A stretch of 64,000 nucleotides of DNA from an uncultured Solirubrobacterales bacterium (GTDB lineage Bacteria; Actinomycetota; Thermoleophilia; Solirubrobacterales; Solirubrobacteraceae), in contig CAWKGU010000009.1 in NCBI GenBank assembly GCA_963849295.1, positions 40,836 through 104,835 on the forward strand, given 5' to 3'. The notes beneath the pieces were generated by a model. It worked only from the letters and a program-made list of their open reading frames with translations, ran no database searches and was not told the origin of the DNA. The translations under genes were made by a program, and so were the position numbers. Positions 7,424-29,173 of this stretch are shown here, piece after piece (position 1 is the first letter of the stretch; every line of letters begins with the position of its first letter).

Positions 7424-8086
7424 CTACCGGCCGAGCGCGAGCCGCACTCCTCCGATCTGAAGCTCGGTCTGCGCGTCGTCGCTGGCGCGCAGCTCGATCT
7501 CGATCAGGCCCCGCTCGTCCGCATCGGCGCTGAAGCGAAGCCCCTCGGGGAGCCCGCCGAGAATGAACTGCCAGCGCTCAGCGACGCTTTCGGGATCCTT
7601 CACCGCGACGGTCGCGCCCGTCAGGCGGAGATCCTTGGTGGTACGCCGCCCCCAATCCGGACCGCCCCACCGCCACGATCCAGGGGGAGTCGGCTGGCTC
7701 AGCGAAACGATTGCGCCGCGCATGTCCGCGGGATGCAGGTGGACCTCGTCCATGTCCGGCAGGGACACGTCGAACACCTCGCGGATCCCCTCACCCCGAG
7801 CACGTGACCGCCCGCCGGCGACATCGTCAAGCTGGACCATCACCATGTACCCGCAGTCGCCGCCGCGGCGCTGGAGCATCCGCGCGGCGGGAGCGTCGTC
7901 ACGAATCGGAGAGATGACCTCCAGGAACGTGTCGCCGAGGGCGAACACCGCGTTGCGCAATCCGAAGTAGCCAACGGCCGGATCAGCGAACGGCTCAGCC
8001 AGGCCGAGCCTCGCGCGAAGGTTCTCGGCGACGCCGTCGAGATCGCGCGCGGCGATCACCGCCTGGCGGAGCCTCGGTTCGCTCAG
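7424..8086 (-). CDS. VOC/glyoxalase-like domain protein
   Basis: RLRQAVIAARDL...FGLRNAVFALGDTFLEVISP...HLHPADM. Start is CTG 8086 (coupled) or GTG 8059. Confidence 0.75.
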   Translation of the reverse strand: MSEPRLRQAVIAARDLDGVAENLRARLGLAEPFADPAVGYFGLRNAVFALGDTFLEVISPIRDDAPAARMLQRRGGDCGYMVMVQLDDVAGGRSRARGEGIREVFDVSLPDMDEVHLHPADMRGAIVSLSQPTPPGSWRWGGPDWGRRTTKDLRLTGATVAVKDPESVAERWQFILGGLPEGLRFSADADERGLIEIELRASDDAQTELQIGGVRLALGR

Positions 8087-10359
8087 TGCTTCTTGACCTT
8101 GAGCTTGGAGACTGTGAGCTCTGTCGAACGGCTTCCGTTGGTGTTCGTGGCGCTCAGGGTCAAGTTCACCGAGTCTTTGGGTTTCCCTGACAGGGCCTTC
8201 TTCGGCAGCTTCAGCAGGATCGTCAGCGTCTGGCCCGCGGTGACGCTCTTGCTGACTGACAGGCTGAAGCTCTTGGAATGCTTGCCCTTCTTCTCCTTGA
8301 GCTTCCCGATCAGGCTCAGACTCGCGGTCTGATTGCAGGTGACAGTGAGCTGCAGCACATCCTTCAGGCGCTTCTGCTTCTTGCGCGGATGCAGCAGCAC
8401 CTTGTTGTTCTTGGCCTTCAGCGTGCAGGACGGACGCGTGGGCTTCGCCAGCTGGAGCTCAAACGCCCCGATGTCGCAGCGAGCGCCGGCGGGACGCAGG
8501 AGCCCGCGCTGATCGATCGTCAGCGGGTTCCCAGCCGGGTCGGTGCAACCGGAAGGGTTGCCGGCATCGATCGCCGGGCTGCCGGGCAGGAGCGCGCGCG
8601 TCTGCGTCGGCCCGCCGTTATTCGCCAGCGGGCCGAGGCCGACTGTGCTCGAAGGAACGACCTTGTCGCCGGTCGCCGTGAAGTTGCAGGTATCGGGCGA
8701 GTCGGTGAGGTTGTAGCCGAGCGAGGTGTAGACGGGCGTGCCGCCGCCGCCGTTCGTGCAGTCGGCGTTGCTGAAGGCGGTGTTGTTCGCGATGATCGAG
8801 TTCTTGGTGTCGATAGTGGAGCCGAGGTTGTAAACGCCGCCGCCGTAGCCATTCGGCGCGGAATTGCCAGCGATCGTGACGTTCGCGAGGACGTCGGGAC
8901 TGGTCGCTGAGCTCTTGTTGACGTAGATGCCGCCGCCCCCCATCGCCACGAGCGAGCTGGCGTTGGTGCTGTTGCCCGAGAACGTCGAGTTCGTGTAGGT
9001 GTTCTCGGCACTTCCGCTCTGGTCCTCGTAAACGGCGCCGCCGCCCGAATCGGTCGGCCCGGAGCTCTCGTCGACCAGCGATTGGTTGTTGCTGAATGTG
9101 GTGCCAGCCGCCGTGATGTGCTGGAGCGAGTCGATCTGGACCGCGCCTCCGCCGTGGGAGTCGTCGCCTGCGGTGACGCTCGAGGTGTTGCCGTCGAGCG
9201 TGCTGTTCTGAAGCGTCTCGAATCCAAACGTGGAGTCCGCGCCGCCGCCGGAGCAGCAATGGAGGCCGCCGTTGTTCCCGGAGGGCCCATTGACAGTGCT
9301 CGTGTTGTTGTCCTGTGTGCTGTTCGTGACGGTCAGCCCTGTCCCTGAGCTCCCCGACACGTCCATGTAGATCGCGCCGCCGCCGTGACAGCACTGGCCG
9401 CTGGAGATCGTTGCGCTGTTGCCGTCGAGCGTGCTGTCCTGCACCGAGACGTTCGTATTGTTGTCCTGGTAGATCCCGCCGCCGCCCGAACAGCAGTTAT
9501 TCAGACTGCCGGTGATATCGGTCTGTGTGCCGTTGAGCGTGAAGCTGTTGTTGGAAACCTGGCTGCCCGCGGAGATCGTGATCGGACCATCCCCGTTGAC
9601 CGCGTCGTCGTAGATGCCGCCGCCGCCGTGATAGTGATCGCCGGAGCTGGTGACTGTCGCCGAGTTGTGAGTCACCGCGCTGCTGACCAGCGTCAGGCCG
9701 CGCTCGTCGGTGTAGATGCCGCCGCCACCGTTACAGCACGACCCCGTGCCGCCCGTCAACGTCGCGGTGTTGTTGGTGACGCTGCTGCCGGTAAGCGTTG
9801 TGGTCCCGCTGTTGTTATAGACGCCGCCGCCGCCGACGCAGCAGTTGGAGGCGCCGGTCGAGAACGTCGCGCTGTTGCCGGTCACGACCGCGTTGAGGAG
9901 GGCGAGATTGATCAACACCGAGTTTGAGACGAAGTTGACCAGGATCCCGCCGCCGCCCGTCTCGTTTGCGTTTGTGCCCGACGCATTTCCCCCGGTGATC
10001 GTCACGCCCTGGAAGGTGACCGTCTGCGAGCTCGCCGGGCTCGCCGTCACGTCGAACACCCGGCTCGATCCGCCCGTGGCGTCGATCACCGATGAGCTCG
10101 CCCCGGCGCCCTGGATCGTGAGTGGTGCGACGGTGATCGGGATCTCGCCGGACGTCACTTGGTAATGCGAAGAGCTCGCCGGCACGACGACCGTGTCGCC
10201 GGGGCTGGCGGAGAAGATTGTCGCCCGCAGGCTGCCGGGTCCCGAGTCGCTCTGATTGGTGACGGTCAATGTCGCCGCCTGCGCCGCGCCGGCGAACCCG
10301 AACAGCAGAACGCCCGCGAGTGACGCCCCGAGGGCCAGCCGTGAGAAGCCCAACCTCAC
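8083..10359 (-). CDS. Secreted beta-helix repeat protein with choice-of-anchor Q-like domain and CCxGGG motifs (paralog 1)
   Basis: Signal peptide, DSGPGSLR motif, xxNxA/GGGG repeats, LGPLANNGGPTQTRALLPGSPAIDAG...DQRG...CDIGAFE, Lys-rich C-terminal domain. Confidence 0.85.
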   Translation of the reverse strand: MRLGFSRLALGASLAGVLLFGFAGAAQAATLTVTNQSDSGPGSLRATIFSASPGDTVVVPASSSHYQVTSGEIPITVAPLTIQGAGASSSVIDATGGSSRVFDVTASPASSQTVTFQGVTITGGNASGTNANETGGGGILVNFVSNSVLINLALLNAVVTGNSATFSTGASNCCVGGGGVYNNSGTTTLTGSSVTNNTATLTGGTGSCCNGGGGIYTDERGLTLVSSAVTHNSATVTSSGDHYHGGGGIYDDAVNGDGPITISAGSQVSNNSFTLNGTQTDITGSLNNCCSGGGGIYQDNNTNVSVQDSTLDGNSATISSGQCCHGGGAIYMDVSGSSGTGLTVTNSTQDNNTSTVNGPSGNNGGLHCCSGGGADSTFGFETLQNSTLDGNTSSVTAGDDSHGGGAVQIDSLQHITAAGTTFSNNQSLVDESSGPTDSGGGAVYEDQSGSAENTYTNSTFSGNSTNASSLVAMGGGGIYVNKSSATSPDVLANVTIAGNSAPNGYGGGVYNLGSTIDTKNSIIANNTAFSNADCTNGGGGTPVYTSLGYNLTDSPDTCNFTATGDKVVPSSTVGLGPLANNGGPTQTRALLPGSPAIDAGNPSGCTDPAGNPLTIDQRGLLRPAGARCDIGAFELQLAKPTRPSCTLKAKNNKVLLHPRKKQKRLKDVLQLTVTCNQTASLSLIGKLKEKKGKHSKSFSLSVSKSVTAGQTLTILLKLPKKALSGKPKDSVNLTLSATNTNGSRSTELTVSKLKVKKH

Positions 10360-11613: not shown

Positions 11614-13566
11614 TCAGCTGCCCAGCCGCTCGAATACGACAAACCCCTGCTCACCGAGCAGGCGGGCCGTCTGCTCGTCCGTGTCGAGGGAGTGCTCCTC
11701 CCCGTGCAGCACGTCGCGCCAGCGCCCCTCCAGCGACGGTAGGCGAGAACCCTCAGTCTCACGACCGACCGAAACCACGACGAGCACCGCATCCCCGCGC
11801 AGGTACGCGCACACGCCGGGACCCGCGTCCAGCGGCTGGTACGAACCGCCAAACGGCGCCGGCCGTCGCGCCCGCAGTCCGAGAAGCCGCAGCGTGAGGA
11901 ACAGCTTGAACGTGGCGTCGTCTGGAGGCGAGCCTCCCATCAAGCGGCGCAGCATCGCCTGCCTGAGGCGCCAGTCGACCGCCTGGCGGTTGTCCGGATC
12001 GACAAGTGCGCGATACGGCAGCTCGTCCCCCTGGTAGATATCGGGGACGCCAGGAGCGGTCAGCTTCAGCACCAGCTGGGCCAGCGCGGCGCGTTCGCCC
12101 GCCCGCGCCACGCGTGCGGCAAACGGCTGAAAGTCTTCAATGAAGGGCTGGTGGAGGTAGAGCGCCCGGCAGAAACTCTTCACCGCCTCCTCCCACTCGA
12201 TGTTCGGCGAGACCCAGTTCGTATTGCGCTTGGCCTCCCGTAGCGCCTTCTCCATGTACGCCTCGATCCGCTCGACGCCGATCGGCCAGGCCCCGACGAG
12301 CGTTTGAAACAGGAAGTAGCGCTCAACGCCGTCGGGGGCGCCGTCGATCAGCAACGGCTCGGTGAGGGAGAGCCAGCGCCCTACGTGCTCGCGCCACTCG
12401 CCCGCGAACAGCGTGAGCGCTCCGATCCGCGCGCGCACGTCGGCTGAGCGCTTGGCATCGTGCGTCATCGTCGTCAACAGGCCAAACGGGAAGCGCTCGG
12501 CCCGCTCGGCGTTAGCCGCGTGGAAATCATCCACCTCCAGCCCGAAGCGACCCGGGTCGCCGCCTACGTCGTTGAGTGCCAGCAGGCGCCCGTAGCGGTA
12601 GAACGCAGTGTCTTCGACCCCTTTCGCCATGACGGCGGGGGTCGTCTGCTGAAAGCGCGTTATGAATGGATCTGAGGAGACGTCATAGGTCCGGTAGACC
12701 GGCAGCGAGGCGAGGTCGAGTTCCAACGCGTCCCGGTCAACGCCGGGGCGCGCACGCATCAGCCACTCCACCTCGTGCTGGAACGTGGTGCGAACCTGTT
12801 CGAGCTTCGCCTCGAACGCGACCTCGTCGAAGGTCCGGCGATCTTCCGAGATCGCCTCCCACAACGACGTGAAGGAGTCCTCCGCGCTGCGATCGATGAA
12901 CAGCGCACAGACGCTGTTGAGGAACTCGTAGCCAACGGTTCCGCATACTGGCCAGTCCGGCAGCCGTTCGCCGCGCTGCAGGATCTTCTCCACCCACACG
13001 CGCAGAACACCGCGCTCGCGCAGTCGCACGAGATAGCCGGTCGGGTCCGCAAGCCCGTCAGGGTGATCGACCCGGAGACCGTCGACGAGCCCGTCGCGAA
13101 CAAGTGAAAGCGCGCGCGCGTGCGTCTCCTCAAAGACGCCGAGATCTTCCTGGCGCACGCCTGCCAGATGGTCGATGTCAAAGAAGCGTCGGTGACGGCC
13201 CGAGACGGGATCGAGGTCGAAGAACCGCTCCCGCAGCGAGGGATCGGCCCAGTACGGGTTGGCGTCCTCCGCGGCCAGGTGGTTGGGCACCACGTCCAGC
13301 ACGATCCCCATGCCGGCGTCGCGTGCAGCGCCTGAGAGCTGCTCGAATCCCTCCGCTCCGCCGAGCTCCCGAGACACCTGCCCTGGATCTATGACGTCGT
13401 AGCCATGGGTCGATCCGGCCCGAGACTGCAACACGGGAGACAGGTACAGGTGCGAGATTCCGAGATCGCGGAGGTAGGGAACCAGCGAGCACGCTGCATC
13501 GAACCCGAAGGACGAGTTGAGCTGAAGGCGGTACGTCGCCCGGAGTTCGCTGACGGAGCTCGTCAA
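11614..13566 (-). CDS. treY: Malto-oligosyltrehalose synthase
   Basis: RATYRLQL, GSTHGYDV, GLRVDHPDGL, PGVPDIYQG. Start TTG overlaps the glgX stop. Confidence 0.95.
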   Translation of the reverse strand: MTSSVSELRATYRLQLNSSFGFDAACSLVPYLRDLGISHLYLSPVLQSRAGSTHGYDVIDPGQVSRELGGAEGFEQLSGAARDAGMGIVLDVVPNHLAAEDANPYWADPSLRERFFDLDPVSGRHRRFFDIDHLAGVRQEDLGVFEETHARALSLVRDGLVDGLRVDHPDGLADPTGYLVRLRERGVLRVWVEKILQRGERLPDWPVCGTVGYEFLNSVCALFIDRSAEDSFTSLWEAISEDRRTFDEVAFEAKLEQVRTTFQHEVEWLMRARPGVDRDALELDLASLPVYRTYDVSSDPFITRFQQTTPAVMAKGVEDTAFYRYGRLLALNDVGGDPGRFGLEVDDFHAANAERAERFPFGLLTTMTHDAKRSADVRARIGALTLFAGEWREHVGRWLSLTEPLLIDGAPDGVERYFLFQTLVGAWPIGVERIEAYMEKALREAKRNTNWVSPNIEWEEAVKSFCRALYLHQPFIEDFQPFAARVARAGERAALAQLVLKLTAPGVPDIYQGDELPYRALVDPDNRQAVDWRLRQAMLRRLMGGSPPDDATFKLFLTLRLLGLRARRPAPFGGSYQPLDAGPGVCAYLRGDAVLVVVSVGRETEGSRLPSLEGRWRDVLHGEEHSLDTDEQTARLLGEQGFVVFERLGS

Positions 13567-15683
13567 CGGACCCGCTTGAGCACCAAGATCGAGTGCGACG
13601 GAACCGCAAGCTCCGCACGAGCGCTGTACCACGCGCTCGCCGGCTCGGCACGGGGATCCGCCGTCGAGAGCTCGAGCGCCCACTGGGCGCCGAAGCGCCG
13701 CCGCGGCAACACGAATACCCGCGCCTCACCGTGAGCGTTGAACAGGACGAGAAACGAGTCGTCATCGATGCCCTCGCCACGCGGTCCGGGATCGATGATC
13801 TCGTCCCCGTTGAGGAACATCCCCAGCACGGGCTCGCCGTCCTGCCAGTCCCGTCGGGTCATCTTTCGCCCATCGACGCGAAACCACCAGACGTCCGGCA
13901 GTCCCGACCCTCTCAGCTCCTCACCGCGCAGAAAGCTTTGACGGCGGAACACCTGATGCTCGCGGCGCGTCCGGATCAGGCGCTGGGTGAACGCATGAAG
14001 CCCGGAGACGTCCTCGTCCTCGTGCCAGTCGTACCAGGAGATCGGGTCGTCCTGGCACCAAGCGTTGTTGTTCCCCCTTTGGGTTCGTGCGCGCTCGTCC
14101 CCTCCAAGCAGCATCGGCGTTCCCTGCGACAAAAGCAGCGTCGTGAGGAAGTTTCGTCGCTGGCGCGCCCGCAGCTCGAGGATGGAGTGGTCGTCAGTCT
14201 CGCCTTCGACCCCGCAGTTCCACGACCGGTTGTCGTCGCTGCCGTCATTGTTGTCCTCGAGATTTGCCTCGTTGTGCTTCTGCTCATATGAGACGAGGTC
14301 GGCGAGCGTGAAGCCATCGTGGGCGGTGACGAAGTTGATCGAGGCAAACGGCTCGCGACCGTCCTGGGCATACAGGTCCGACGAGCCGGAGATCCGAGAG
14401 GCAAATGGCCCAGGGTTGGCGTGACCCCGCCAGAAGTCTCGAACGGTGTCGCGGTACATGCCGTTCCACTCTGACCACAGCACCGGAAAATTGCCCACCT
14501 GGTAGCCGCCCGGACCAACGTCCCACGGTTCGGCGATCAGCTTGACCTGGGAGAGCACGGGGTCCTGGTGGATCACGTCGAAGAATGCCGAGAGTCGATC
14601 GACGTCAAAGAACTCGCGGGCGAGGGCAGACGCCAGGTCGAAGCGAAAGCCGTCGACGTGGCATTCCACCACCCAGTAGCGGAGCGAGTCCATGATCAAC
14701 CGCAGGACGCTGGGATGGACCGGGTTCAGCGAGTTGCCTGTGCCGGTGAAGTCCATGTAATGCCGGGGATCGTCGGGTACCAGCCGGTAGTAGGAAGAGT
14801 TGTCGGCGCCCTTGAACGAGAGCATCGGCCCCAGATGGTTGCCCTCCGCGGTGTGGTTGTAGACGACGTCGAGGATCACCTCGATGCCAGCGCGGTGGAG
14901 CGCCTTGACCATTCCCTTGAACTCGCGCACCTGCTCTCCGCGCCACCCGGTGGCGGCGTATTCGCAGTGCGGCGCGAAGTAGCCGATCGTCGAGTACCCC
15001 CAGTAGTTGCGTAGCCCCCTGTCGACAAGGAAGGCCTCGTCGGAGATGTGATGCACCGGCAGCAACTCGACGGCGGTGACGCCGAGGTCCACCAGGTAGT
15101 CGATCGCCGCCCGGGAAGCAAGGCCCGCGTAGGTCCCGCGTAGGTCCTCGCGGACTTCCGGATGGCGCATCGTGAATCCGCGCACGTGCGTCTCGTAGAT
15201 GACCGTGTCGGCGAACGGGGTCCGCGGATGCCTGTCACCCTCCCACAGGAACGCGTCGTCGATAACCACCGACTTAGGCACCGCCGCGGAGTCATCCTCG
15301 TCGTCGGGCTCCAAATCCGCGTCCTCGGTCCCGTCCGGCACGTAGGGAAGGACATTCGCGTCGTGCGTCCAGTCGACGACGCCGTCGATCGCCTTGGCGT
15401 AGGGATCGATCAGCAGCTTGGCCGGATTGAAGCGGTATCCCTGTGCTGGGTCGTACGGGCCCCGTACGCGGAAGCCGTAACGCTGGCCGGGAGCGACGTC
15501 GGGCAGGTAGCAGTGCCAGTTGAGCGCTCGGCGCTGAGTGAGCTCGATCCGCGTCTCGTTGTCACCCTCGTCGAACAGGCACAGCTCGACGCCTTCAGCG
15601 GACTCCGAGAACAGCGAGAAGTTGGTCCCCCCGCCGTCCCAGGTCGCTCCCAGCGGGAAGGGCGCGCCCGGCCAGATTTCCAT
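13563..15683 (-). CDS. glgX: Glycogen debranching enzyme (GlgX/TreX)
   Basis: WPGAPFPLGAT, NYWGYST, DGFRFDLA, LIAEPWD, NFVTAHDGFTL. Confidence 0.96.
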   Translation of the reverse strand: MEIWPGAPFPLGATWDGGGTNFSLFSESAEGVELCLFDEGDNETRIELTQRRALNWHCYLPDVAPGQRYGFRVRGPYDPAQGYRFNPAKLLIDPYAKAIDGVVDWTHDANVLPYVPDGTEDADLEPDDEDDSAAVPKSVVIDDAFLWEGDRHPRTPFADTVIYETHVRGFTMRHPEVREDLRGTYAGLASRAAIDYLVDLGVTAVELLPVHHISDEAFLVDRGLRNYWGYSTIGYFAPHCEYAATGWRGEQVREFKGMVKALHRAGIEVILDVVYNHTAEGNHLGPMLSFKGADNSSYYRLVPDDPRHYMDFTGTGNSLNPVHPSVLRLIMDSLRYWVVECHVDGFRFDLASALAREFFDVDRLSAFFDVIHQDPVLSQVKLIAEPWDVGPGGYQVGNFPVLWSEWNGMYRDTVRDFWRGHANPGPFASRISGSSDLYAQDGREPFASINFVTAHDGFTLADLVSYEQKHNEANLEDNNDGSDDNRSWNCGVEGETDDHSILELRARQRRNFLTTLLLSQGTPMLLGGDERARTQRGNNNAWCQDDPISWYDWHEDEDVSGLHAFTQRLIRTRREHQVFRRQSFLRGEELRGSGLPDVWWFRVDGRKMTRRDWQDGEPVLGMFLNGDEIIDPGPRGEGIDDDSFLVLFNAHGEARVFVLPRRRFGAQWALELSTADPRAEPASAWYSARAELAVPSHSILVLKRVR

Positions 15684-17226
15684 CAGGTGATCAGCGCCCC
15701 GGAAAGAGGGGCGATCTGCAGGTGCGGTGGGTTTAGGGCGGTGTCGGCCGACGTTGCGAGCCGGATGCAATCGCCGCCGCATGGCAGGCGCAGCGCTTCG
15801 CTGCCGAAGTTGCACACCAGCTCAAACCGCTCACGGCGAACGCGCAGCACGCGTGCATCCTCGTCGAAATCGATTCCGGTCGGCTCCCCGCCCGGCAACT
15901 CGCGGCGAAGCCTCAGCAGCTCCTCGTACAGCGTCCCCAGCACCGGGTCGCGGACGCGCCCCAGCTTTGAGCGCTTAAACGTCTCCCTTGCCTGCGGATC
16001 AGGAACTTCATCCCCGAACTGAGCAAACGCGGCGAACTCGTGCCGGCGGCCCTCACGCGTTGCGCGGGCGATCTCGGGGTCGATGTGATCGGAGAAGAAC
16101 TGAAACGGTGCGGTCTCTCCGTACTCCTCACCCATGAACAGAAGCGGCACGAACGGCGAGAGCAGCGTGCAGAACGCGGCGAGCGGCCTGGCGGCCACGG
16201 GTAGGCGATCGCCAAGCGCACGGTTACCAACCTGGTCGTGGTTCTGCGCGTAGACCACGAAACGCTCGGGTGGAGCGTGGCGAAATGCCTCGGCGAGCTG
16301 CTCCACGCGTCCAAACGGCTTGTAGTAGCCGTCGCGCTCGCCGGTCAGCAGCACGTGCAGCGCGTGATGAAAGTCGTCGACCCAGATTGCATCGCAGGCG
16401 GGTGCGCCGTGTTCGCTCGGAGCCTCCATCCCGACCTCGCCGATCACCAGCGCCCGAGGGTTCACCTCGTGCACGTCGCGCGCAATTGCCGCGACGATGT
16501 GATGGGGGCTCGGATCGAAGATCGCGTGAATCGCGTCGAGCCGAAGCCCGTCGATCCCGAAATCACGAATCCAACCCACGGCGCTCTCGACAACCCAATT
16601 CCGAACCGCCTCGCACCCGAAGTTGATCGCTCGTCCCCAGAACGTCTCGTACTCGTCGGTGAAGTACGGCCCGAAGGCCTCAAGCGCCCTCACGCCAGAC
16701 GCGCCGACGTGGTTGTAGACGACGTCGAGAATCACCGCCAGGCCCGCCGCGTGGGCCGCATCGACGAATGCCCGCAGAGCAAACGGCCCGCCGTACGACG
16801 ACTGTGCTGCGGAGATGTAGACGCCGTCGTAGCCCCAGCCTCGCGAGCCGGGGAACTCCGCCACCGGCATCAACTCGACGGCTGTCACGCCGAGCGCCGC
16901 CAGATCGTCGAGCCGAGCCGCGGCCTCGTCAAACGTCCCTGCTGGGGTGAACGTCCCGACGTGGAGCTCGTAGATGACGAGCTCGGCCAGAGAAGGTCCA
17001 TCGAACTCTGCCGGCGCCTGGTCGAACTCGAGCACACGCGATGGACCCCGCAGCCCGCGCGGCTGCCATTGGGAGCCCGGATCGGGCAGCGGCTCACCGT
17101 CAACGACCAACCAGTAATCCTCGTCTGGCGGCGGCGCCGGTGTTTCGTAGTACTCCTCGCCGTCGAGCGGAATGTCGCGGCCGCCGAGTCGCAGCGCCAG
17201 CGATCGCGCCGCGGGCGCCCAGACCT

Positions 17227-17230
<4 letters not shown>
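15683..17230 (-). CDS. treZ: Malto-oligosyltrehalose trehalohydrolase
   Basis: VWAP start, [35 protein letters not shown]. Confidence 0.94.
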
Positions 17231-19187
<1,957 letters not shown>

Positions 19188-19191
<4 letters not shown>

Positions 19192-20501
19192 GCCTCCTCC
19201 AGCAACCGCCTGATTCCGGCAACGGGAATCAAGACCCAATCGGGCCGGTTGTCCAGCTCGTACCGGAGCTCGTAGATCGCCTTCTCGAGCTCGAAGATCG
19301 AGAGCACATTTCCGATCGCAGCCTCGCCCGTCGGCAGCAGCGTGCTGTCGACCTCGGCGAAGTAGTGATCGAGGAACTCGGTCCTCGCCCGCTGTTCAAA
19401 ATCGGCCGGCGCCGCGCGACCACGCAGGATCAGAGCAGCCGAGGTCACATACGCGAACGAACGAAGCATGCTTGCCACATCGCGCAGCGGGGAGCGCTTC
19501 TGCCTGCGCTCGGGCAAGGGCCGCGCCGGCTCGCCTTCGAAGTCGATGATGACCCAATCGCCGTGCGCATAGAGCGTTTGGCCCAAGTGGTAGTCGCCAT
19601 GGGTGCGGATCACGCGGCCACCCGTGCCGATCTGAGCACGGGACGCGAGCCGCTCGCGGACGTCCTGGCCGCGCCCAGCGATCGGCGCGACGCGCTCATC
19701 GTCGGGAAGCCGAACGAAGATCCGCTCGATGTCCTCGTCGATCGATGCGGTCAGCAGCGACAGCGCCTCCTGGCTCGGTTCCTCGGGCGAGAACGCGGGG
19801 TCGCCGGCGTCCGACGCGAGCGCGGTGTGCATCCGGGCGGTCACCGAACCGAGGCTTCCCAGCAGGGCGAGAAACGCATCCGGTCTGTGCTCGATCTGAT
19901 CGAGGGCGAGTTCCCAGCCGCCAACGGCGTCCGGCAGGAACGATTGCGCGACGCCGAGCGTCGCCGCCAGCGCCTGGCCGTCGTACTGGTAGTAGCCGTG
20001 TAGCGGCGCGATGTTCGAAAAACCGTGTGCGGTCAGGAAGCGAAGCAGCTCGAGCTCCGGATTGATTCCAGGCTCAAGCTTGCGAAAGACCTTCAGCACC
20101 AGCCGGTCGTCGAACACAACCGAGGTGTTCGACTGCTCGACTCCGACCAGCCGGGCGCGTCCGCCACCGGAGCGCAACGGCAGCGCGCCGTCGACGCGCT
20201 GAAACGAGAACACTCCCTCCGCAGCCGCCACCTCGGAGCTGTCGTCGATCCGCCGCAGCAGCTCGAGTGCGTTCTCGGGCTGGGCGAGCGCGTCGAACTG
20301 GCTGTCGCCAAACACCAGCTGGTAGAGCTCATGGGTACCTGTGGCGAACCGCGTTTGGACGAGCGCCAGCTCGAGTCCGTCGCGTAGGGGAAGACGCTCG
20401 ACAAGCTCAATCGCCGCGACCGAGCGTGATTTGGACGCGTACCAGCGCTGCTGCTCGATCCACTCGCGGAGCTCGTCCGCGCTGCCCACGGCGTTAGGCA
20501 T
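19188..20501 (-). CDS. mak: Maltokinase (Mak/Pep2)
   Basis: [46 protein letters not shown]. Confidence 0.93.
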
Positions 20502-22245
20502 CGGCTTCGTCCGCGATGAGCTCAAACCAGAAGAAGCCTCGTGGAGCCAGCGTCAGCAGATAGGGCAGCTCGCCGATCCGCGGGAAGCGCGAGCGGCCGA
20601 AGAGCTCCACGGGATACCGCCCCTCGGACGCACGAAGATCGAGCTCCACCGCCTGCGCCGAGCGGGCAACGTTGTGAACGCACAACACCAGATCATCCTC
20701 GAAACGACGCAGATGGGCGAAGATGCGGGGGTTTGAGGTCTCGATCGGCTCGTAGGTGCCGAAGCCGAACACGGGGTGTTCCTTGCGCAGCGAGATGAAG
20801 CGGTGGATCCAGCGCAGCAAGGAGGTCGCGGTGCGGAGCTGAGCCTCGATATTGACGGCCTGAAAGCCGTACACCGGGTCCATCAGCGGCGGTGCGTACA
20901 GCTGCGCGAAGTCCGCCCGCGAGAAGCCTCCATTGCGATCGCCGGTCCACTGCATCGGGGTGCGGACGCCGTCGCGATCGCCGAGGAAGACGTTGTCCCC
21001 CATCGCGATCTCGTCTCCGTAATACAGGACAGGCGACCCCGGCAGAGAGAAGAGGATCGCGGTCATCAGCTCGATCTCGTCGCGGCCGTTGTCGAGCAGC
21101 GGCGCCAGCCGCCGCCGGATGCCGAGGTTGAGCTTCATCCGCGGATCCTTGGCGTACTCCTTGTACATGTAGTCGCGCTCATCGTCGGTGACCATCTCCA
21201 GCGTCAACTCGTCGTGGTTGCGCAGGAACAACCCCCACTGACAGCTGTCAGGGACGGATGGGGTGCGCTCGAGGATCTCGTAGATCGGGACGGCCTCCTC
21301 ACGGCGGACCGCCATGAACATGCGCGGCATCACCGGGAAGTGGAACGCCATGTGGCACTCATCGCCGCGGCCGAAGTACTGCACGACGTCCGCGGGCCAC
21401 TGATTGGCTTCAGCCAGCAGCACGCGGTCGGGATAGTGCGCGTCGACCTCGCGGCGCACGCGCTGCAGGTACTCGTGCGTCTCGGGGAGGTTCTCGCAAT
21501 TGGTGCCCTCGCGCTCAAACAGGTAGGGCACGGCGTCGAGCCGGAAGCCGTCGAGGCCAAGCTCGAGCCAGAAGCGCAGCACGTCGAGCATCGCTTCCTG
21601 CACCTCGGGGTTGTCGTAGTTGAGGTCGGGCTGGTGCGAGAAGAAGCGGTGCCAGTAATAGGCACCCGCCCCCGGGTCCCAGGTCCAGTTCGAGGGCTCG
21701 GAGTCGATGAAGATGATCCGGGCGTCGGCATAGCGCTCGTCGGTGTCCGACCACACATACCAATCCCGTTTTGAAGACGTGGGGCCTGAGCGGGACTCCT
21801 GGAACCACGGGTGGTCGCTCGAGGTGTGGTTCATCACCAGGTCGGCGATCACTCTGATCCGCCGGGCGTGGGCGGCGTCGATCAGCTCGCGCACGTCCTC
21901 GACCGTCCCATAGTCAGGATGCACGTCGGTGAAGTCGGATATGTCGTAGCCCCCGTCGCGCAGCGGCGAGCGGTAGAAGGGCAACAGCCAGATGCAGTCG
22001 ATCCCAAGCCACTGGAGATAGTCGAGCTTCTCGGTCAGCCCGCGGAAGTCGCCCGATCCGTCGCCGTTTGAGTCGTAGAAGCCGCGGATGTGGATCTCGT
22101 AGAAGACCGCCCGCTTGAACCACAGCGGCTCGGCCTCAAACCACTGCCTGCTCTGTGCCTGAGCGGAGGGGGTTTGCTCGGGCGCGTCCGCCAGATTGCG
22201 CTCGGACGCCAGCAGGTGGGTGAGCGTCGGCGGGCCTACGCTCAT
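20494..22245 (-). CDS. treS: Trehalose synthase (maltose alpha-D-glucosyltransferase)
   Basis: [40 protein letters not shown]. Confidence 0.97.
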
Positions 22246-24164
22246 GATGCCTCCACGCCCAGCACGTGCGCTTGGCGCACGCCGGGCTCCAGCCGCACGT
22301 AGTTGGGGCCGATCCGCCATTGAAAGCGCTCGTCGCCGAGGAGGTCGTGCACCGTGAAGCTCGGCGCCAGTCCCAGCTCTGCCGGGACGATCGCGAGGCC
22401 CTCCTGCGTCTGGTGGGGGTCGATGTTGACCACCGTGATCACTGTGTTGCCCGCGGATTGCTTGGCGTATGCGATCAGCGCCTCGTTCGCCGTCTCGAGG
22501 AATCGCACATTGGAGAACGCCTGGAGTGCCGGATTCTCGCGGCGCACCTGGTTGAGCCGAGCGACCAGCGGCAGCAGCGGGCCGTCGAGCTTGCGGCGCC
22601 GAAGCTCGTACTTCTCCGAGTGCAGGTACTCCTCGGAGCCCTCCCTCACTGCAACGTTCTCGACGTTTTCATACCCGGAATAGATCCCGTACGAGGGACT
22701 GAGGGTCGCGGCGAGGACGAGCCGGGCCTCGAACGCCGGCCGGCCGCCGTGCTGGAGGTAGGCGTGGAGGATGTCCGGGGTATTTGCGAAGAAGTTCGAG
22801 CGGAAATACTCCTGTTCGCCGGAGTAGGCGAGCTCCAGCACGTACTCGCTCAGCTCGTACCGCGAGTTCTTCCAGGTGAAGTAGGTGTAGGACTGACTGA
22901 AGCCAAGCTTTGCAAGGTGACGCATCACCGCCCGCCGCGTGAACGCCTCTGACAGGAACACCACGTCTCGGTTGCGCGAATGCACCTCGCCGATCAGCCA
23001 GGTCCAGAATGCAAAAGGCTTCGTGTGCGGGTTGTCGACACGGAACACCTCGATTCCGCACTCGACCCAGTGCAGCACGACCTCCAGCAGTGCTTGCCAC
23101 AGCGCCCGCCAGTCCTCGGACTCCCAGTTGACGTTGTAGATGTCCTGGTAGCGCTTCGGCGGATTCTCCGCGTACTTCAGCGTTCCATCTGGACGCCGGT
23201 GAAACCACTCGGGGTGCTCGCGCAGCCACGGATGATCCGCCGAGCACTGGATCGCGAAGTCAAGCGCGATATCCATCCCCAGATCCCGCGCGGCCGCGGT
23301 GAGGGTGCGGAGGTCATCCACGGTCCCGAGCGCCGGATCGACTGCGTCGTGTCCCCCTTCCGAGGAGCCGATCGCCCACGGCGAGCCGGGGTCGCCGGGG
23401 CCCGCGACCAGCGCATTGTCGCGGCCCTTGCGATTCGTTACTCCGATCGGGTGAATCGGCGGCAGATAGACAACGTCGAACCCAAGCTCGGCGAGCCTCG
23501 GAAGCTGCCGCTCGACTCCCTTCAGGCCTCCCCACGAGCGTGGGAACAGCTCATACCAAGCACCGAACCGCGCTCGCACGCGGTCCACGTCGATCGGCAG
23601 TGCCGCTTCGAGCGAGACGGCGCCGTGGCGTTCCTGCGAGCGCTCCACGGCGGCGAACAGCTCGGGACCGAGGGCGGCGTCGTGCTTGGCGGTCTCGGGG
23701 ACCGCGTCGTCGGCAAGCGTCGCCAGCGCGTGCTCGATCAGCTTGCGGTCAGCGGCCGCCGAGGCACGGCCGAGCGCGGCTTGCAGCAGGACGACGCCCT
23801 CGGACATCTCGCCCGCGAGATCTGTCTGGCCCGCGGCGAGCTTGCGCTCCAGCTCGTTGCGCCAGGTCCCGAATACGTCGGTCCATGCCTCGATCGTGTA
23901 TTCCCATCGACCGATCCGATCGACGGCGAAAGATCCCATCCAGCGCACCCCATCGATGTCCGCGTCGAGCTGTCGCATCTCCGCCTCCTTCCACGTGCGG
24001 CCGCGGGGCGCCCGGTAGCGAACGACGGCGCGCAGGAACTCGTGCCCATCGCGGAAGATGTCTGCGGTGACGACGACCCGGTCCCCGATGCAACGCTTGG
24101 CTGGAAAACGCCCGTTGTCGACGACGGGAGCGGGGTATTGGATGACGATCCGTTGCTCGGTCAC
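22242..24164 (-). CDS. glgE: Alpha-1,4-glucan:maltose-1-phosphate maltosyltransferase
   Basis: [44 protein letters not shown]. Confidence 0.96.
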
Positions 24165-24167
24165 GGT

Positions 24168-25431
24168 ATGTCGAACATAACGATCGACTCCCTTACCCGC
24201 GCGAGCGGCGTGCAACTCCACATCACCTCACTTCCCGGTGGGCGTCTGGATGCTGATGCGTACCGCTTCGTCGACTGGCTCGCCGCCGCGGGTCAGTCGT
24301 GGTGGCAGGTGCTGCCACTCGGACCACCCGATCGACACCGCTCCCCATACAAGTCGAGTTCGGCGTTCGCGGCATGGCCAGGGCTGCTCGGCCAGCAGGC
24401 GCGTAGGCGCCCCGTGCGCCGCGAAGAGCTGATCGAGTTCCGCGAACGCGAGGCATTCTGGGCCATCGACTGGGAACACTTCAGCCGCCGGGGGGCGCTC
24501 GCCGACCAGGTCCGCTTTGACCGCGAGTGGCGCGCGCTGCGCCGCTACGCCGGGCAAAGCGGCGTCAGCATCATCGGCGACGTTCCGATCTACGTCGCGC
24601 CGAGCAGCGTCGACCATCGGGCGCATTCCGAGCTGTTTCAGCCTGGCTTCGTGGCGGGCGCCCCGCCCGACGACTACGCCCGCACCGGACAGCTGTGGGG
24701 CAATCCGCTGTACGACTGGCCCGCGATGCGTCGCCGGAGGATATCGCTGGTGGGTGGAGCGCTTCAGGCGGACGCTGTCGCTATTCGATTTCGCGCGGCT
24801 CGATCACTTCCGCGGCTTCGTCGCGTATTGGGCCGTGCCCGACGGCGCACGCAGCGCGATCGGCGGGCGCTGGCGGCGCGGACCGGGTCGCGCCGTGTTC
24901 GACGCGGCAACTCGTGCGCTCGACCAGGAGCTCCCGCTCCTCGCCGAGGATCTCGGTGTGATCACCCGTCCGGTCGAGCGTCTGCGTGACGCACTCGGAT
25001 TCCCGGGGATGCTCGTGCTCCAGTTTGCGTTCGACCCTCGCGACGCGCACAGCCCCCACCGGCTGGAACGTCACCAAGTTGACCGGTTCGTCTACACCGG
25101 TACGCACGACCACGACACAGCGCGTGGGTGGTACGAGTCGCTCGACGAGCCGCGCCGCCAGCTCGTCCGGGAGGAGCTCACTCAGTCCGGGATCACCGAG
25201 CGCGAGCCGTGGTGGGGCCTGATCCGCCTGGCTCTGAGCTCTCCCGCACGCGTGGCGATGATGCAGGCCCAGGATGTCCTCGGCCTCGGCAGCGAGGCGC
25301 GGATGAACGTGCCGTCCCGTGCGTCGGGGAACTGGCGCTGGCAGCTGCAACCCGGCGCTCTAACTCCGGCGCTCGCCAGGCGTCTGCGGGCTGCGACCGA
25401 GGATGCTAGGCGCCTGCCAGCAGCGCCTTGA
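24168..25431 (+). CDS. malQ: 4-alpha-glucanotransferase (apparent +1 frameshift near 24739)
   Basis: SGVQLHITSLPG, WWQVLPLGP, GDVPIYVA and QLWGNPLYDW are in one frame. RLDHFRGF, AEDLG and YTGTHDHDT are in the next. Confidence 0.92.
24193..24216 (-). promoter_or_regulatory. Putative SigB/SigF-type stress promoter for the glgE operon
   Basis: Minus strand GTTG-N14-GGGTAA about 30 nt upstream of the glgE start. Confidence 0.5.
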
Positions 25432-26121: not shown

Positions 26122-28397
26122 CTAGAGGGTACGCGGCTTGAGCTTTGAGATCTTCAGGTTGCTGGTGTTGATGCCGTTGCCGTTGCTCACCGCCAGCGTC
26201 AGGGCGGCGGACTCCTTCTTGTGCTTCGCCAGCGCTTTGACCGCGCCACCCGGCAGCTTGAGGGTGATCGTGAGTGTTTTACCGCCGGTGATCATGTAGG
26301 TATGCGTGCCGAAGTTGAAGTGCTTCGTGTGATGCTTGTTGCGCTGCTCGGTGAGCTTGCCTGACAGCGTCAGCGTGGCCGACTGGTTGCAGGCGGCGGT
26401 GAGCGTCAGCACCCCGATCTTCGCTTGCTTGTGCTTCTTACCCTTGGGCTTCTTGACGAGCACCTTGTTGCTCGCGGCCTGCAGGCTGCACGACGGAGGG
26501 CTTGGCTTCGAGGGCTGGAACTCGAATGCGCCGATGTCGCAATGCGCACCGGCTGGCCGCGGCTCCCCGCGCTGATCGGTCGTCAATGGCGCACCGGATG
26601 GATCGGTGCAGCCACCCGGATTGCCGCCATCGATCGCCGGACTACCAGCGAGCAGCGCGCGGGTCTCCGTCGGGCCCCCGTTGTTGGCGAGCGGCCCGAG
26701 CCCGACCGAGCTCGGCGGCACGATTTTGTCGCCCGTCGCCGTAAAGCTGCAGGTATCGGGCGAATCGGTCAGGTTGTACCCAAGCGAGGTAAGGGCGGGG
26801 GCGTTGAACATCGGATCTTTGAACATGAAGCAGTTGCTGTCAGCAGAGGCCGTGTTCAGCGCGACGATCGAGTCCTTGAAGTCGACCACTGCGCTCTCGG
26901 CGAGAATTCCCCCGGCATCTCCCGAGCTGGCCGTGTTTCCGCTCAGCGTCACATTCGCCAGCACATCCGGTGCAGTTGAGTTGACGGCGCCGGCGTAGAT
27001 CCCCCCGCCGCCCTGCGGGACGCTCGCGCTCGACGCGTTCGTGCTGTTTCCGGACAGGGTCGAGTTCGTGTACGTGCTTGGGCGGCGGTGTCCTCGTACA
27101 CACCTCCTCCTCCCGAATCGCCCGTTGACCCGGAGACCGGGGCGACGTCGGAGGTGTTCTGGCTAATGTTGCTGTCGAGCACCGTCACCCCATCTTTGGC
27201 ATCGATGTTCACTCCGCCGCCGCCGTGGCAGCAGTCCCCGGCGTTGACCGAAGAGGTGTTTTGCTCAACGGTGCTGTTGGTGAGGCTCTCGGGACCGAAA
27301 ACGGCGTCGGCTCCCCCACCGGAGCAGCAGTGCGTGTTGGAGTTCGCGCCTGACGGCCCGTTGACGGTGGCGGTGTTGTTGCTCTGGGAGCTTCCGTTGA
27401 TGATCAGCGGGATATGGTCCGAGCTGGTCACGTCCATATAGATCGCCCCGCCGCCGTGGCAGCATTCGCCGTCGTTGATCGTGGCGCTGTTGCCGTCCAG
27501 TGTGCTGTTGAGGATCGAGGTGGTGCTGTTGGTGTCCTGGTAGAGGCCGCCGCCCCCCGAGCAACATCCGCTGGCGGCGTCGGTCGAGCCTCCGTTCAGC
27601 GTGAAGCTGTTGTCCGACACCTGGCTCCCGGTGATCATCATCGGAGAGATGCCGTTCGCTCCATCGCCGTAGACGCCGCCCCCGCCGTTGCAGCATTTCG
27701 AGCTGGTCACCGTCGCGGAGTTCTGCGTTACCGCGCTGCCTGAGAGCGTGACCGCGCTGTAGTCGTCGTAGATGCCCCCGCCGCCCTCACAGCAGCTGCC
27801 GTTGCTCATGATCGTGAGGGTGTTGTGGCTCACGGTGCTACCGGTGAGCGTGACGCTCCCGCCGTTGTTGTAGATGCCGCCGCCGCCCGTATCGCCGGAC
27901 GTGGATGAGATCGTCGCGCTGTTCCCGGTCACCGTGGTGTTGGTGAGCGACAGGTTCACGGCAACCGAGCTCGACACGAAGTCCACCATGATCGCCCCGC
28001 CGCCCGCACAGCAACCGCTGCTGACGGTCGCGTTGCCCCCCGTGATTGTGACCCCCTGGAACGAGATCGTCTGGCTCGACGCCGGCGACGCCATCACGTG
28101 GAACACGCGGCTCGAGCCGCCTGAGGCATCGATCACCGACGAACTCGCGCTCGCGCCCTGAATCGTGAGCGGCGCGACCGAGATCGGGATTTCGCCGGAG
28201 GTGACCTGATAGTGCGAGTTGTTCGCCGGCAACATCACCGTGTCACCGGCGCTCGCCGAGGCGATCGTCGCCCGGAGGCTGCCGGGTCCAGAGTCCGCGG
28301 TCGAGGTGACGGTCAGCGTCGCCGCATGCGCGCTTGCTGCAGCCCAACCGACCACGAGCAAAACGACCGAAACCAGCCCCAAAAGCCGGAGTCTCAT
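26122..28397 (-). CDS. Secreted beta-helix repeat protein with CCxGGG motifs (paralog 2; apparent frameshift near 27080)
   Basis: ORFs 26949-28415 and 26122-26964 join into a protein colinear with 8083-10359. Confidence 0.85.
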
Positions 28398-28498
28398 TGA
28401 CCCCACACAACCCACGCAGCCACCCTCTCATAATCCCCCAGCCGGTGCAACCGGGAAGATTTCGCCCTACCGCGACGTCGTTAAGCTCAAGGAAAGCC

Positions 28499-29173
28499 AT
28501 GCGCAGAGAGAACGAACCCCTTACAGAGCGCGAGCGCCAGATCGTCGAGCGCATCCACGAGACACACGCGAGCGTGCGAGCGCCCGAAGCCCTGCGTGCG
28601 CGAATCGAGGCGATGCGTCCGAGCCCCGCGCGAGCGGGCCGGCAGCGGGTCCGTTACGGCGGCGCGCTAGCTGGCGCGCTGGCGGCGGCCGCGCTCGCGT
28701 TGGCGCTGGTGCTGCCGGGCGGCAGCCCCGGCTCGCCGTCGGTCAGCCAGGCCGCGGCACTCGCCCTGAACGGGCCCTCGTCGCCCGCGCCGGCCGCCGA
28801 CTCGTCCGCGCCGAACGTCAAGCTCGGCCGCGACGTCGAGGACGTCTACTTTCCCAACTGGGCGACGCAGTTCCACTGGCGCGCGGTAGGTCAGCGGAGT
28901 GACCGGATCGACGGGCGCGAGGCCGCAACCGTGTACTACGCCTGGCACGGCGCGCAGATCGCCTACACGATCGTCGCCGCCCCGGCGCTGAAGGAGCCCG
29001 CCGCAAGCACGAAGATGCTCAACGGAACGGAGCTGCGCACGCTGGATCTGGCCGGCCGCGTCGTCGTCACCTGGCGACGCGCGGGGCACACCTGTGTGCT
29101 ATCGGGCAGCGGCGTCAATCCTGCCGTGCTGCAGGAGCTGGCGGCGTGGAAGGTCCCGGGGGAGATTCGCTGA
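28499..29173 (+). CDS. Single-pass membrane protein, putative anti-sigma factor
   Basis: Short N-terminal cytoplasmic helix, TM segment GALAGALAAAALALALVL, extracytoplasmic C-terminal domain, adjacent to an ECF sigma. Confidence 0.6.
   Translation: MRRENEPLTERERQIVERIHETHASVRAPEALRARIEAMRPSPARAGRQRVRYGGALAGALAAAALALALVLPGGSPGSPSVSQAAALALNGPSSPAPAADSSAPNVKLGRDVEDVYFPNWATQFHWRAVGQRSDRIDGREAATVYYAWHGAQIAYTIVAAPALKEPAASTKMLNGTELRTLDLAGRVVVTWRRAGHTCVLSGSGVNPAVLQELAAWKVPGEIR

Follow-up and report, generated by a model that had tools for sequence, protein, structure and literature searches.

What chemistry would explain two adjacent Cys residues placed at the same loop of rung after rung in an exported parallel beta-helix? 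The question is raised by a gene on the reverse strand of a stretch of 64,000 nucleotides from an uncultured Solirubrobacterales bacterium (GenBank assembly GCA_963849295.1, contig CAWKGU010000009.1, positions 40,836 to 104,835), which is called the window here, and by a paralog of that gene in the same window. The original prediction, made from the letters of the window, described a secreted beta-helix protein with a ladder of Cys-Cys-x-Gly-Gly-Gly loops and offered three chemistries for it, namely a metal-binding strip, a redox-active array of vicinal disulfides and an inter-rung disulfide zipper. We find that the Cys-Cys (CC) pattern is far beyond chance, is conserved and is restricted to a small clade. 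For its chemistry we tentatively favour, at somewhat short of an even chance, a stack of vicinal disulfides that would stiffen Gly-rich loops and probably contact a glycan.

Position and register of the Cys-Cys pairs

The features of the target gene that bear on the ladder are as follows, the coordinates being those of the window.

8083..10359, (-): whole gene of the 758-amino-acid (aa) CC-ladder beta-helix protein, from the list of open reading frames (ORFs) and translation; start codon GTG at 10359, stop codon at 8083-8085
9154..9843, (-): ladder proper, aa 173-402, seven consecutive rungs, from translation, DSSP and alignment
9838..9843, (-): codons of Cys173-Cys174 (TGC TGC), in NCCVGGGG
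9733..9738, (-): codons of Cys208-Cys209, in SCCNGGGG; CC in 23/41 homologs
9490..9495, (-): codons of Cys289-Cys290, in NCCSGGGG; CC in 30/41 homologs
9388..9393, (-): codons of Cys323-Cys324, in QCCHGGGA, followed by the conserved His325; CC in 30/41 homologs and His at -1 in 24/41
9253..9258, (-): codons of Cys368-Cys369, in HCCSGGGA, preceded by the conserved His367; CC in 33/41 homologs and His at -4 in 18/41

All five CC motifs and the two Cys-less rungs that had been read at the same position were recovered in the translation. Rung by rung, the residues directly before GGG[GA] are NCCV, SCCN, DHYH, NCCS, QCCH, HCCS and DDSH, the Cys-less rungs staying in the same register as DHYHGGGG (aa 241-248) and DDSHGGGA (aa 399-406). 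Ten of the 16 Cys of the target are in ladder pairs, and the other six (534, 558, 605, 628, 645 and 675) are found in the C-terminal third. The rung consensus can be written as GGG[GA]-[IV]-[YF]..G.LTL..S.V..N-[ST]-A-T-V......C-C-x, in which the pair occupies the rung-closing loop, always at -3/-2 relative to GGG. The target gene has no tandem repeat at the DNA level and its rungs are mutually ~25% identical, so the ladder is not a recent duplication and this origin was ruled out.

DSSP was read on two independent AlphaFold2 (AF2) models, one of the target and one of the paralog fragment. Every rung has isolated beta-bridges at two places, of which one is the first Gly and the other is either the residue that follows CC or the first Cys itself. 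Since the bridges fall on CCxG in every rung, the CC loops would be stacked in register along one edge of the helix, with the Cys forming two columns, and the stacking of equivalent residues that had been foreseen is seen as bridge ladders in both models. The CC residues are mostly non-extended in the two models, and a vicinal disulfide requires a non-extended backbone. The same register bears on the inter-rung zipper, in which each Cys would be bonded to its stacked counterpart one rung on and the coils thereby stapled together. Loops in register put equivalent Cys about one rung rise apart, and disulfide-braced beta-solenoids are established in insect, spider and algal ice-binding proteins; yet 4.8 A, the rise between rungs in register, is a long distance for a disulfide to span.

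Conservation and distribution of the ladder

A homolog search over 5.8 billion proteins (E<=1e-5) gave 3069 homologs, the best 120 of which were analysed. All 44 best homologs (E<=4e-79, 36-62% identity) have between 1 and 7 CC-x-GG loops, and the next 76 have none. The original prediction had staked itself on Cys pairs that are conserved in homologs, and CC is indeed present at homologous rungs in 44 of the 44. When the 41 full-length members were aligned, CC was found at homologous rungs in 8, 23, 30, 30, 33 and 29 sequences, which places the pair in 29-33 of the 41 homologs at the four central rungs. A tally of rungs over the 44 proteins gave 181 with CC, 269 free of Cys, and no rung was seen in which Cys stands singly; the lone rung flagged by the script as "single" holds the invariant Cys534 of the C-terminal cap, which lies outside the ladder. 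The view that helices of this kind are normally Cys-poor agrees with the 76 CC-less relatives, where the modal Cys count is 6 and no Cys falls in a rung, and six is likewise the modal count of non-ladder Cys in the CC clade.

When 1.84 billion representative proteins were searched with a CC-region profile, the relatives at E<=1e-3 numbered 14,631. Of the best 150 matches listed, only about 30 bear the ladder, nearly all of them from the top-ranked clade, and the giant Pmp-like repeat proteins that rank next have no CC ladder. The four loci confirmed in species-representative genomes (L001-L004) are all from metagenome-assembled genomes (MAGs) of uncultured Solirubrobacterales, and the named database members are MAG proteins of Solirubrobacterales or Actinomycetota.

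Scans of both paralogs and the 41 homologs against Pfam and NCBIfam gave only choice_anch_Q, CSLREA_Nterm, weak Pmp/NosD/RbtA matches and DUF11 tails, and the CC-region profile had no match in the PDB. The motif was also undescribed in the literature on CSLREA/choice-of-anchor Q proteins, vicinal disulfides in beta-helices, cysteine ladders and Solirubrobacter beta-helix proteins. The scaffold is thus already known as the CSLREA / choice-of-anchor Q beta-helix, and it is the CC ladder that is new, with no family model, structure or paper found for it; the statement that no described family accounts for the motif stands for all of these sources.

Gain and loss of the pairs

Counting the lengths of consecutive-CC runs gave 28 runs of one rung, 15 of two, 4 of three, 9 of four, 8 of five and 8 of six. 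Runs of 4-6 CC rungs are therefore common, as a zipper would have it. But 28 CC rungs have no CC neighbour at all, three proteins carry only one CC, and odd lengths (40 runs) are no rarer than even ones (32 runs). CC rungs come and go singly. Close relatives differ by single rungs, and between the two paralogs of the window (~60% identical) the CC state likewise differs at four individual rungs. The isolated rungs and this gain and loss of single rungs make each pair a unit of its own and tell against an obligatory zipper. Bonding along columns would, moreover, permit rungs with a single Cys, and there are none among ~450. Taken together, the strict pairing and the autonomy of single rungs mean that the two Cys of one rung depend on each other and are independent of the neighbouring rungs. 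Of the three chemistries first offered, the zipper is the one that the isolated rungs and run lengths disfavour, and we regard it as improbable.

Residues beside the pairs

The residue that follows CC is Ser (55), His (39), Asn (27), Gln (18) or Asp (17), and the one that precedes it is Gly, Ser, Asn, Asp or His in nearly equal shares. His is present at -1 in 42 of 186 CC rungs vs 18 of 304 CC-less rungs (Fisher p ~1e-7), and at -4 in 23 of 186 vs 2 of 304 (Fisher p ~1e-8), neither p value being corrected for phylogeny. The predicted association of His and Asp with the pairs is borne out in that both are enriched beside them. Distant CC-less relatives nearly lack His at that position (6 of ~700); those ranked P0045-P0120 have G-D-[N/D/S] before GGG, with GD occurring 104 times, and the CC clade appears to have replaced this Asp/Asn row. 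The central block of the ladder is conserved as xCCS / [SDQ]CCH / HCCS / DCC[HDNQ], and its His is kept where CC has been lost, as in DGFH, DRFH, DSEH and DFGH. Of the 34 CC-less rungs that lie within ladders, 14 have Phe or Tyr in the CC columns and 10 retain the -1 His.

These flanking residues bring in the metal-binding strip, by which reduced Cys pairs and the neighbouring His/Asp would chelate Cu(I), Zn, Hg or Cd along the edge of the helix, making the protein an extracellular metal sponge, buffer or chaperone. The strong enrichment of His directly beside the pairs fits it, and so does the conserved core xCCH / HCCS / DCC[H/Q] with a His that outlasts the CC. The adjacent Cys pairs of MerA and MerT bind Hg(II), the stacked Asp/Asn row of the CC-less relatives might be a site for a hard cation such as Ca2+, and 9 of the 41 family members have weak NosD-family matches. 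The last of these is, however, generic beta-helix similarity. It also tells against a metal strip that the protein is exported, has aerobic relatives and carries conserved disulfide-type Cys elsewhere, so that exposed vicinal thiols should oxidise. Conservation of the would-be ligands is only moderate, with His in 14-24 of 41, and they swap freely with Ser, Asn, Gln and Asp, which looks more like hydrogen bonding, and the number of pairs varies from 1 to 7. No metal-homeostasis genes are found beside the window genes or at L001/L004; only L002 and L003 adjoin moaA/modABC. We consider the metal strip unlikely, though still a contender.

Scaffold, export and structural neighbours

The remaining parts of the target protein are listed here.

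10276..10359, (-): Sec-type signal peptide, aa 1-28, MRLGFSRLALGASLAGVLLFGFAGAAQA followed by ATLTV, read from sequence
8680..10275, (-): right-handed parallel beta-helix, aa ~29-560, ~12 rungs, from AF2 secondary structure, Foldseek and PDB profile
8452..8640, (-): choice-of-anchor Q domain, aa 574-636, NCBIfam NF041518, E 5.9e-24
8086..8427, (-): C-terminal Lys-rich Ig-like beta-sandwich, aa 645-758, AF2 strands 645-751 with a predicted local distance difference test (pLDDT) of 52-85

The target is a Sec-exported beta-helix protein of the CSLREA / choice-of-anchor Q class, located at the cell surface or outside the cell. Its signal peptide is probably cleaved after aa 28, as the sequence suggests, and the region is modelled as a lone low-confidence helix at aa 6-21. 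The AF2 model (pLDDT 88.7, predicted template modelling score 0.84, from an alignment of 75 sequences) has three parts, namely the right-handed beta-helix, the cap formed by choice-of-anchor Q and, at aa 645-755, the Lys-rich Ig-like sandwich. The right-handed parallel fold is recognised by its regular strands over ~12 repeats and by the solved beta-helices among the Foldseek matches; together with NF041518 this bears out the Pmp-like, choice-of-anchor Q type of helix that had been proposed. Each rung has 32-47 aa and carries GGG[GA]-[IV]-[YF] and an N-x-[AT] Asn ladder.

The N-terminal cap is CSLREA-like, reading GSLRATI with Gly in place of the Cys of the motif. The model TIGR04214 (CSLREA_Nterm) does not match the target at E<=1 and matches 13 of the 41 clade members, and the N-terminal region of the target aligns with the CSLREA segment of RbtA, a surface protein of Acinetobacter baumannii. 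NF041518, a model of 58 positions, scores 84.1 bits on the target vs a curated cutoff of 25 and matches all 41 aligned members. The invariant Cys605 and Cys628 are inside this domain, and Cys534 and Cys558, also invariant, lie slightly upstream. The C-terminal Lys-rich domain has no Pfam match and its Foldseek matches are local and Ig/FN3-like; it may be a module for attachment to the cell envelope. The Lys-rich tail is present only in some clade members, others stopping after choice-of-anchor Q or bearing DUF11/FN3 tails.

With the full-length profile, RbtA is the sole match in the PDB (E 1e-12). The best Foldseek matches are RbtA (9cdu/9cdv), then PL6 alginate lyases, AlgE epimerases and phage tailspikes. 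These neighbours lead to the redox-active or catalytic array, that is, strained vicinal disulfides that cycle between the dithiol and disulfide states, or a Cys/His/Asp active site at rungs 326-403. The protein would then work outside the cell as a relay of thiol-disulfide exchange or as a carbohydrate-active enzyme whose catalysts are the central His/Asp. Beta-helix lyases, epimerases and hydrolases have catalytic Asp/His on consecutive rungs, and H325, H367, D399 and H402 of the target lie on three adjacent rungs and are conserved in both paralogs and most close orthologs. The conserved positions nevertheless tolerate many substitutions, no significant match to CAZy-type Pfam families was found, and no partner oxidoreductase is encoded nearby. 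Richardson et al. (2017) are said to describe a single catalytic redox case among vicinal disulfides. The published roles of vicinal disulfides are ligand binding, stabilisation and conformational switching (PMC12102755), which speaks against such an array. On this balance a redox-active or catalytic array is quite improbable.

Chemistry of the ladder

A vicinal disulfide in each rung is favoured as the simplest chemistry that fits every architecture, including the proteins with a single CC. The invariant Cys and the six shared non-ladder Cys are what would be expected of a disulfide-bonded extracytoplasmic protein, and as the protein is exported, would thus fold in an oxidising compartment and has conserved disulfide-type Cys elsewhere, the neighbouring Cys of a rung are most probably bonded to one another. 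The oxidation state and this connectivity we infer, and the sequence of events would be as follows. In one small clade the rung-closing loop before GGG[GA]-[IV]-[YF] would have changed from G-D-[N/D/S] to Cys-Cys-[S/H/N/Q/D], and the two Cys of each pair would form a vicinal disulfide. Stacked in register, the S-S rings, which are rigid, flat and hydrophobic, would make a ladder with at most seven steps, bordered by the conserved His/Asp/Ser/Asn row with its core xCCH / HCCS / DCC[H/Q]. Such a ladder would most likely stiffen loops that are otherwise Gly-rich and also form one wall of a ligand-contact face.

The replacement of CC by Phe/Tyr, the polar border and the polysaccharide-active structural neighbours point together to a rigid hydrophobic stripe with hydrogen-bonding partners. 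Vicinal disulfides usually bind the undecorated face of a ring, for example arabinofuranose in 1wd4 (PMC12102755). Judged by what vicinal disulfides and beta-helix grooves are known to do elsewhere, the ligand is probably a glycan.

Several points weigh against the stack of vicinal disulfides. Such disulfides are rare and strained, and no structural precedent for a stack of them was found in the PDB or the literature. The enrichment of His beside CC (22% at -1 and 12% at -4, vs ~1% in distant relatives) suits metal ligation equally well or better. As the number of CC varies between 1 and 7, no individual pair can be essential. The gene context, in the window as well as at L001-L004, is unconserved and holds no hint of a glycan substrate, and no experimental study of any family member was found in the literature. 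A bolder reading takes the stacked Cys-Cys/His loops for a functional element new to the beta-helix scaffold, a linear array of vicinal dithiol/disulfide sites that would act either as an extracellular multi-site binder of soft metals (Cu, Hg, Cd) or as a disulfide relay or redox wire. We think this rather unlikely; if true, the metal binder would be metallothionein-like, unrolled along a solenoid, and in both forms the chemistry would lack a structural precedent.

The paralog and its reading frame

The paralog is in two pieces, which are given below with the break between them.

26949..28415, (-): 5' part, 488 aa, signal peptide and beta-helix with all seven CCxGGG rungs, from translation
26122..26964, (-): 3' part, 280 aa, in another frame, with the last rungs, choice-of-anchor Q and Lys-rich tail; NF041518 at E 4.9e-24, 84.3 bits
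~27075..27085, (-): 1-nt frameshift that splits the paralog, in the GC-rich stretch gacaccgccgcccaagc, from frame analysis
26125-26470, (-): Lys-rich tail, counterpart of aa 645-758 of the target

The seven motifs that had been listed for the paralog are all present, but the single intact reading frame that had been assumed for it is not, since the 1-nt frameshift divides the gene. Beyond about aa 454 the 488-aa ORF is no longer in frame, and that tail falls below 50 in the AF2 model of the fragment, which has a pLDDT of 86.5. No public reads spanning the frameshift were found, and the exact paralog protein is absent from the contig index.

The malQ gene (GH77 4-alpha-glucanotransferase; 24168-25431, (+)) is also frameshifted, with a switch of frame at ~24730-24740 and its halves, the N-terminal (...YDWPAMRRR) and the C-terminal (GYRWWVERF...), in successive frames. 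With a second frameshift in a housekeeping gene, indel errors of the assembly are as plausible as a true pseudogenisation of the paralog, and the broken malQ together with the broken paralog suggests such errors.

Gene neighbourhood

The target is flanked by genes for an L,D-transpeptidase, a glyoxalase-like protein and a GT4 glycosyltransferase, and the paralog by genes for an SGNH hydrolase and an extracytoplasmic function (ECF) sigma factor. The ORF at 28334-29173 beside the paralog has no Pfam match and is a candidate anti-sigma partner of the ECF sigma factor. Between the paralogs there is a seemingly complete alpha-glucan/trehalose block (11614-24989) with signatures of GlgE, MalQ, maltokinase and branching enzyme, as well as four more ORFs of the GH13 amylase family, probably TreS, TreY/TreZ and GlgX; no functional link of this block to the beta-helix genes was found. 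Elsewhere in the window, the ORF at 33451-38367 (+) encodes 1638 aa with FN3 matches that are only sub-threshold and near the C-terminus, and it represents a large, so far uncharacterised surface protein or else an artefact ORF of high-GC DNA.

At L001 the neighbours, judged by eye, are ilvC and dienelactone hydrolase ORFs. The CC-ladder genes of L002 (4558-7680) and L003 (5581-7884), two related MAGs, are placed directly upstream of moaA, with a YHYH protein, modCBA and a MerR/TOBE regulator on that side and the tyrosine catabolism genes hppD, hmgA and phhA on the other, an arrangement that is not common to the window or to L001/L004. At L004 a 576-aa ORF without a Pfam match (7801-9531, (-)) stands beside the CC-ladder homolog; by eye it has a signal-peptide-like N-terminus and then ...TQITVN, which resembles the start of this class of beta-helix. 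A conserved gene neighbourhood was thus rejected, the neighbours being unrelated at the window, L001, L002/L003 and L004, and the gene context therefore gives no functional clue.

Implications

Vicinal disulfides are among the rarest covalent features of proteins and the known examples are all single pairs. An in-register stack of up to seven would, if true, be a new structural motif and a test bed for packed, strained eight-membered S-S rings, and it could be used in designing beta-solenoid materials that are stiff or bind ligands. If instead the pairs are reduced and metal-bound, they would make a new extracellular metal-binding scaffold in soil actinobacteria that are abundant yet almost unstudied. 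Either way, the ladder offers a first point of attack on the function of the large class of CSLREA / choice-of-anchor Q surface proteins, which has one crystal structure (RbtA) and no known function.

Comparison with known systems

The likeness to MerA, with its C-terminal CC, and to MerT is one of chemistry, adjacent Cys-Cys acting there as a bidentate ligand of soft metals. Those pairs are, however, cytoplasmic or membrane thiols that are kept reduced, the proteins have no fold or sequence similarity to the target, and the window has no mer genes. For NosD (TIGR04247) the target has no match and 9 of the 41 relatives have weak ones (best E 2e-8), and no nos genes are found in the window.

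The antifreeze beta-solenoids (Tenebrio-type, spider and Chloromonas) likewise have Cys in every coil lining the solenoid. Their Cys are separated and bridge across the core, whereas those of the target are adjacent, are borne on loops of a large three-sided helix and are autonomous by rung. The target has no sequence or fold match to antifreeze proteins and its adjacent Cys and rungs of 32-47 aa place it outside that class, which is marked by short coils and a flat, Thr-rich face that binds ice. Closer in chemistry are the single vicinal disulfides, such as that of the arabinofuranosidase 1wd4, where adjacent Cys-Cys are again extracytoplasmic and have polar, hydrogen-bonding neighbours; methanol dehydrogenase is another protein with a vicinal disulfide. 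The known cases are single pairs, and neither a stacked array nor one in the rungs of a beta-helix was found described.

The Chlamydia Pmp repeats (GGA(I/L/V), FxxN; PF02415) show the same rung signature, GG[GA]-[IV] and then an x-x-N turn. PF02415 stays below threshold on the target (12.8 bits vs a gathering cutoff of 20.6, E 0.15), a resemblance at the level of the motif only, and unlike Pmp proteins the target has no autotransporter barrel.

RbtA of Acinetobacter baumannii is the best match both in sequence and in fold (Foldseek E 2e-4). It resides at the cell surface, has no known function and, among the proteins of its class, was the first to have its structure solved (PMC12643943). CC loops are absent from RbtA, where the alignment leaves a gap exactly at the CCxGGG loop, and the protein ends in a GlyGly-CTERM rhombosortase signal, whereas the target ends in a Lys-rich Ig-like domain. 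The C-terminus of the target, ...KLKVKKH, is without Gly-Gly and a transmembrane segment and thus lies outside Rhombotarget A; TIGR04212 (RbtA) does not match the target and matches 6 of the 41 relatives weakly. What the two proteins have in common is the (C/G)SLR(E/A)A-like cap, the Pmp-like GG[GA]-[IV]-Y / N-x-A beta-helix, the C-terminal DQRG...R...CD(I/L)GA(F/I)E and probably a location at the cell surface.

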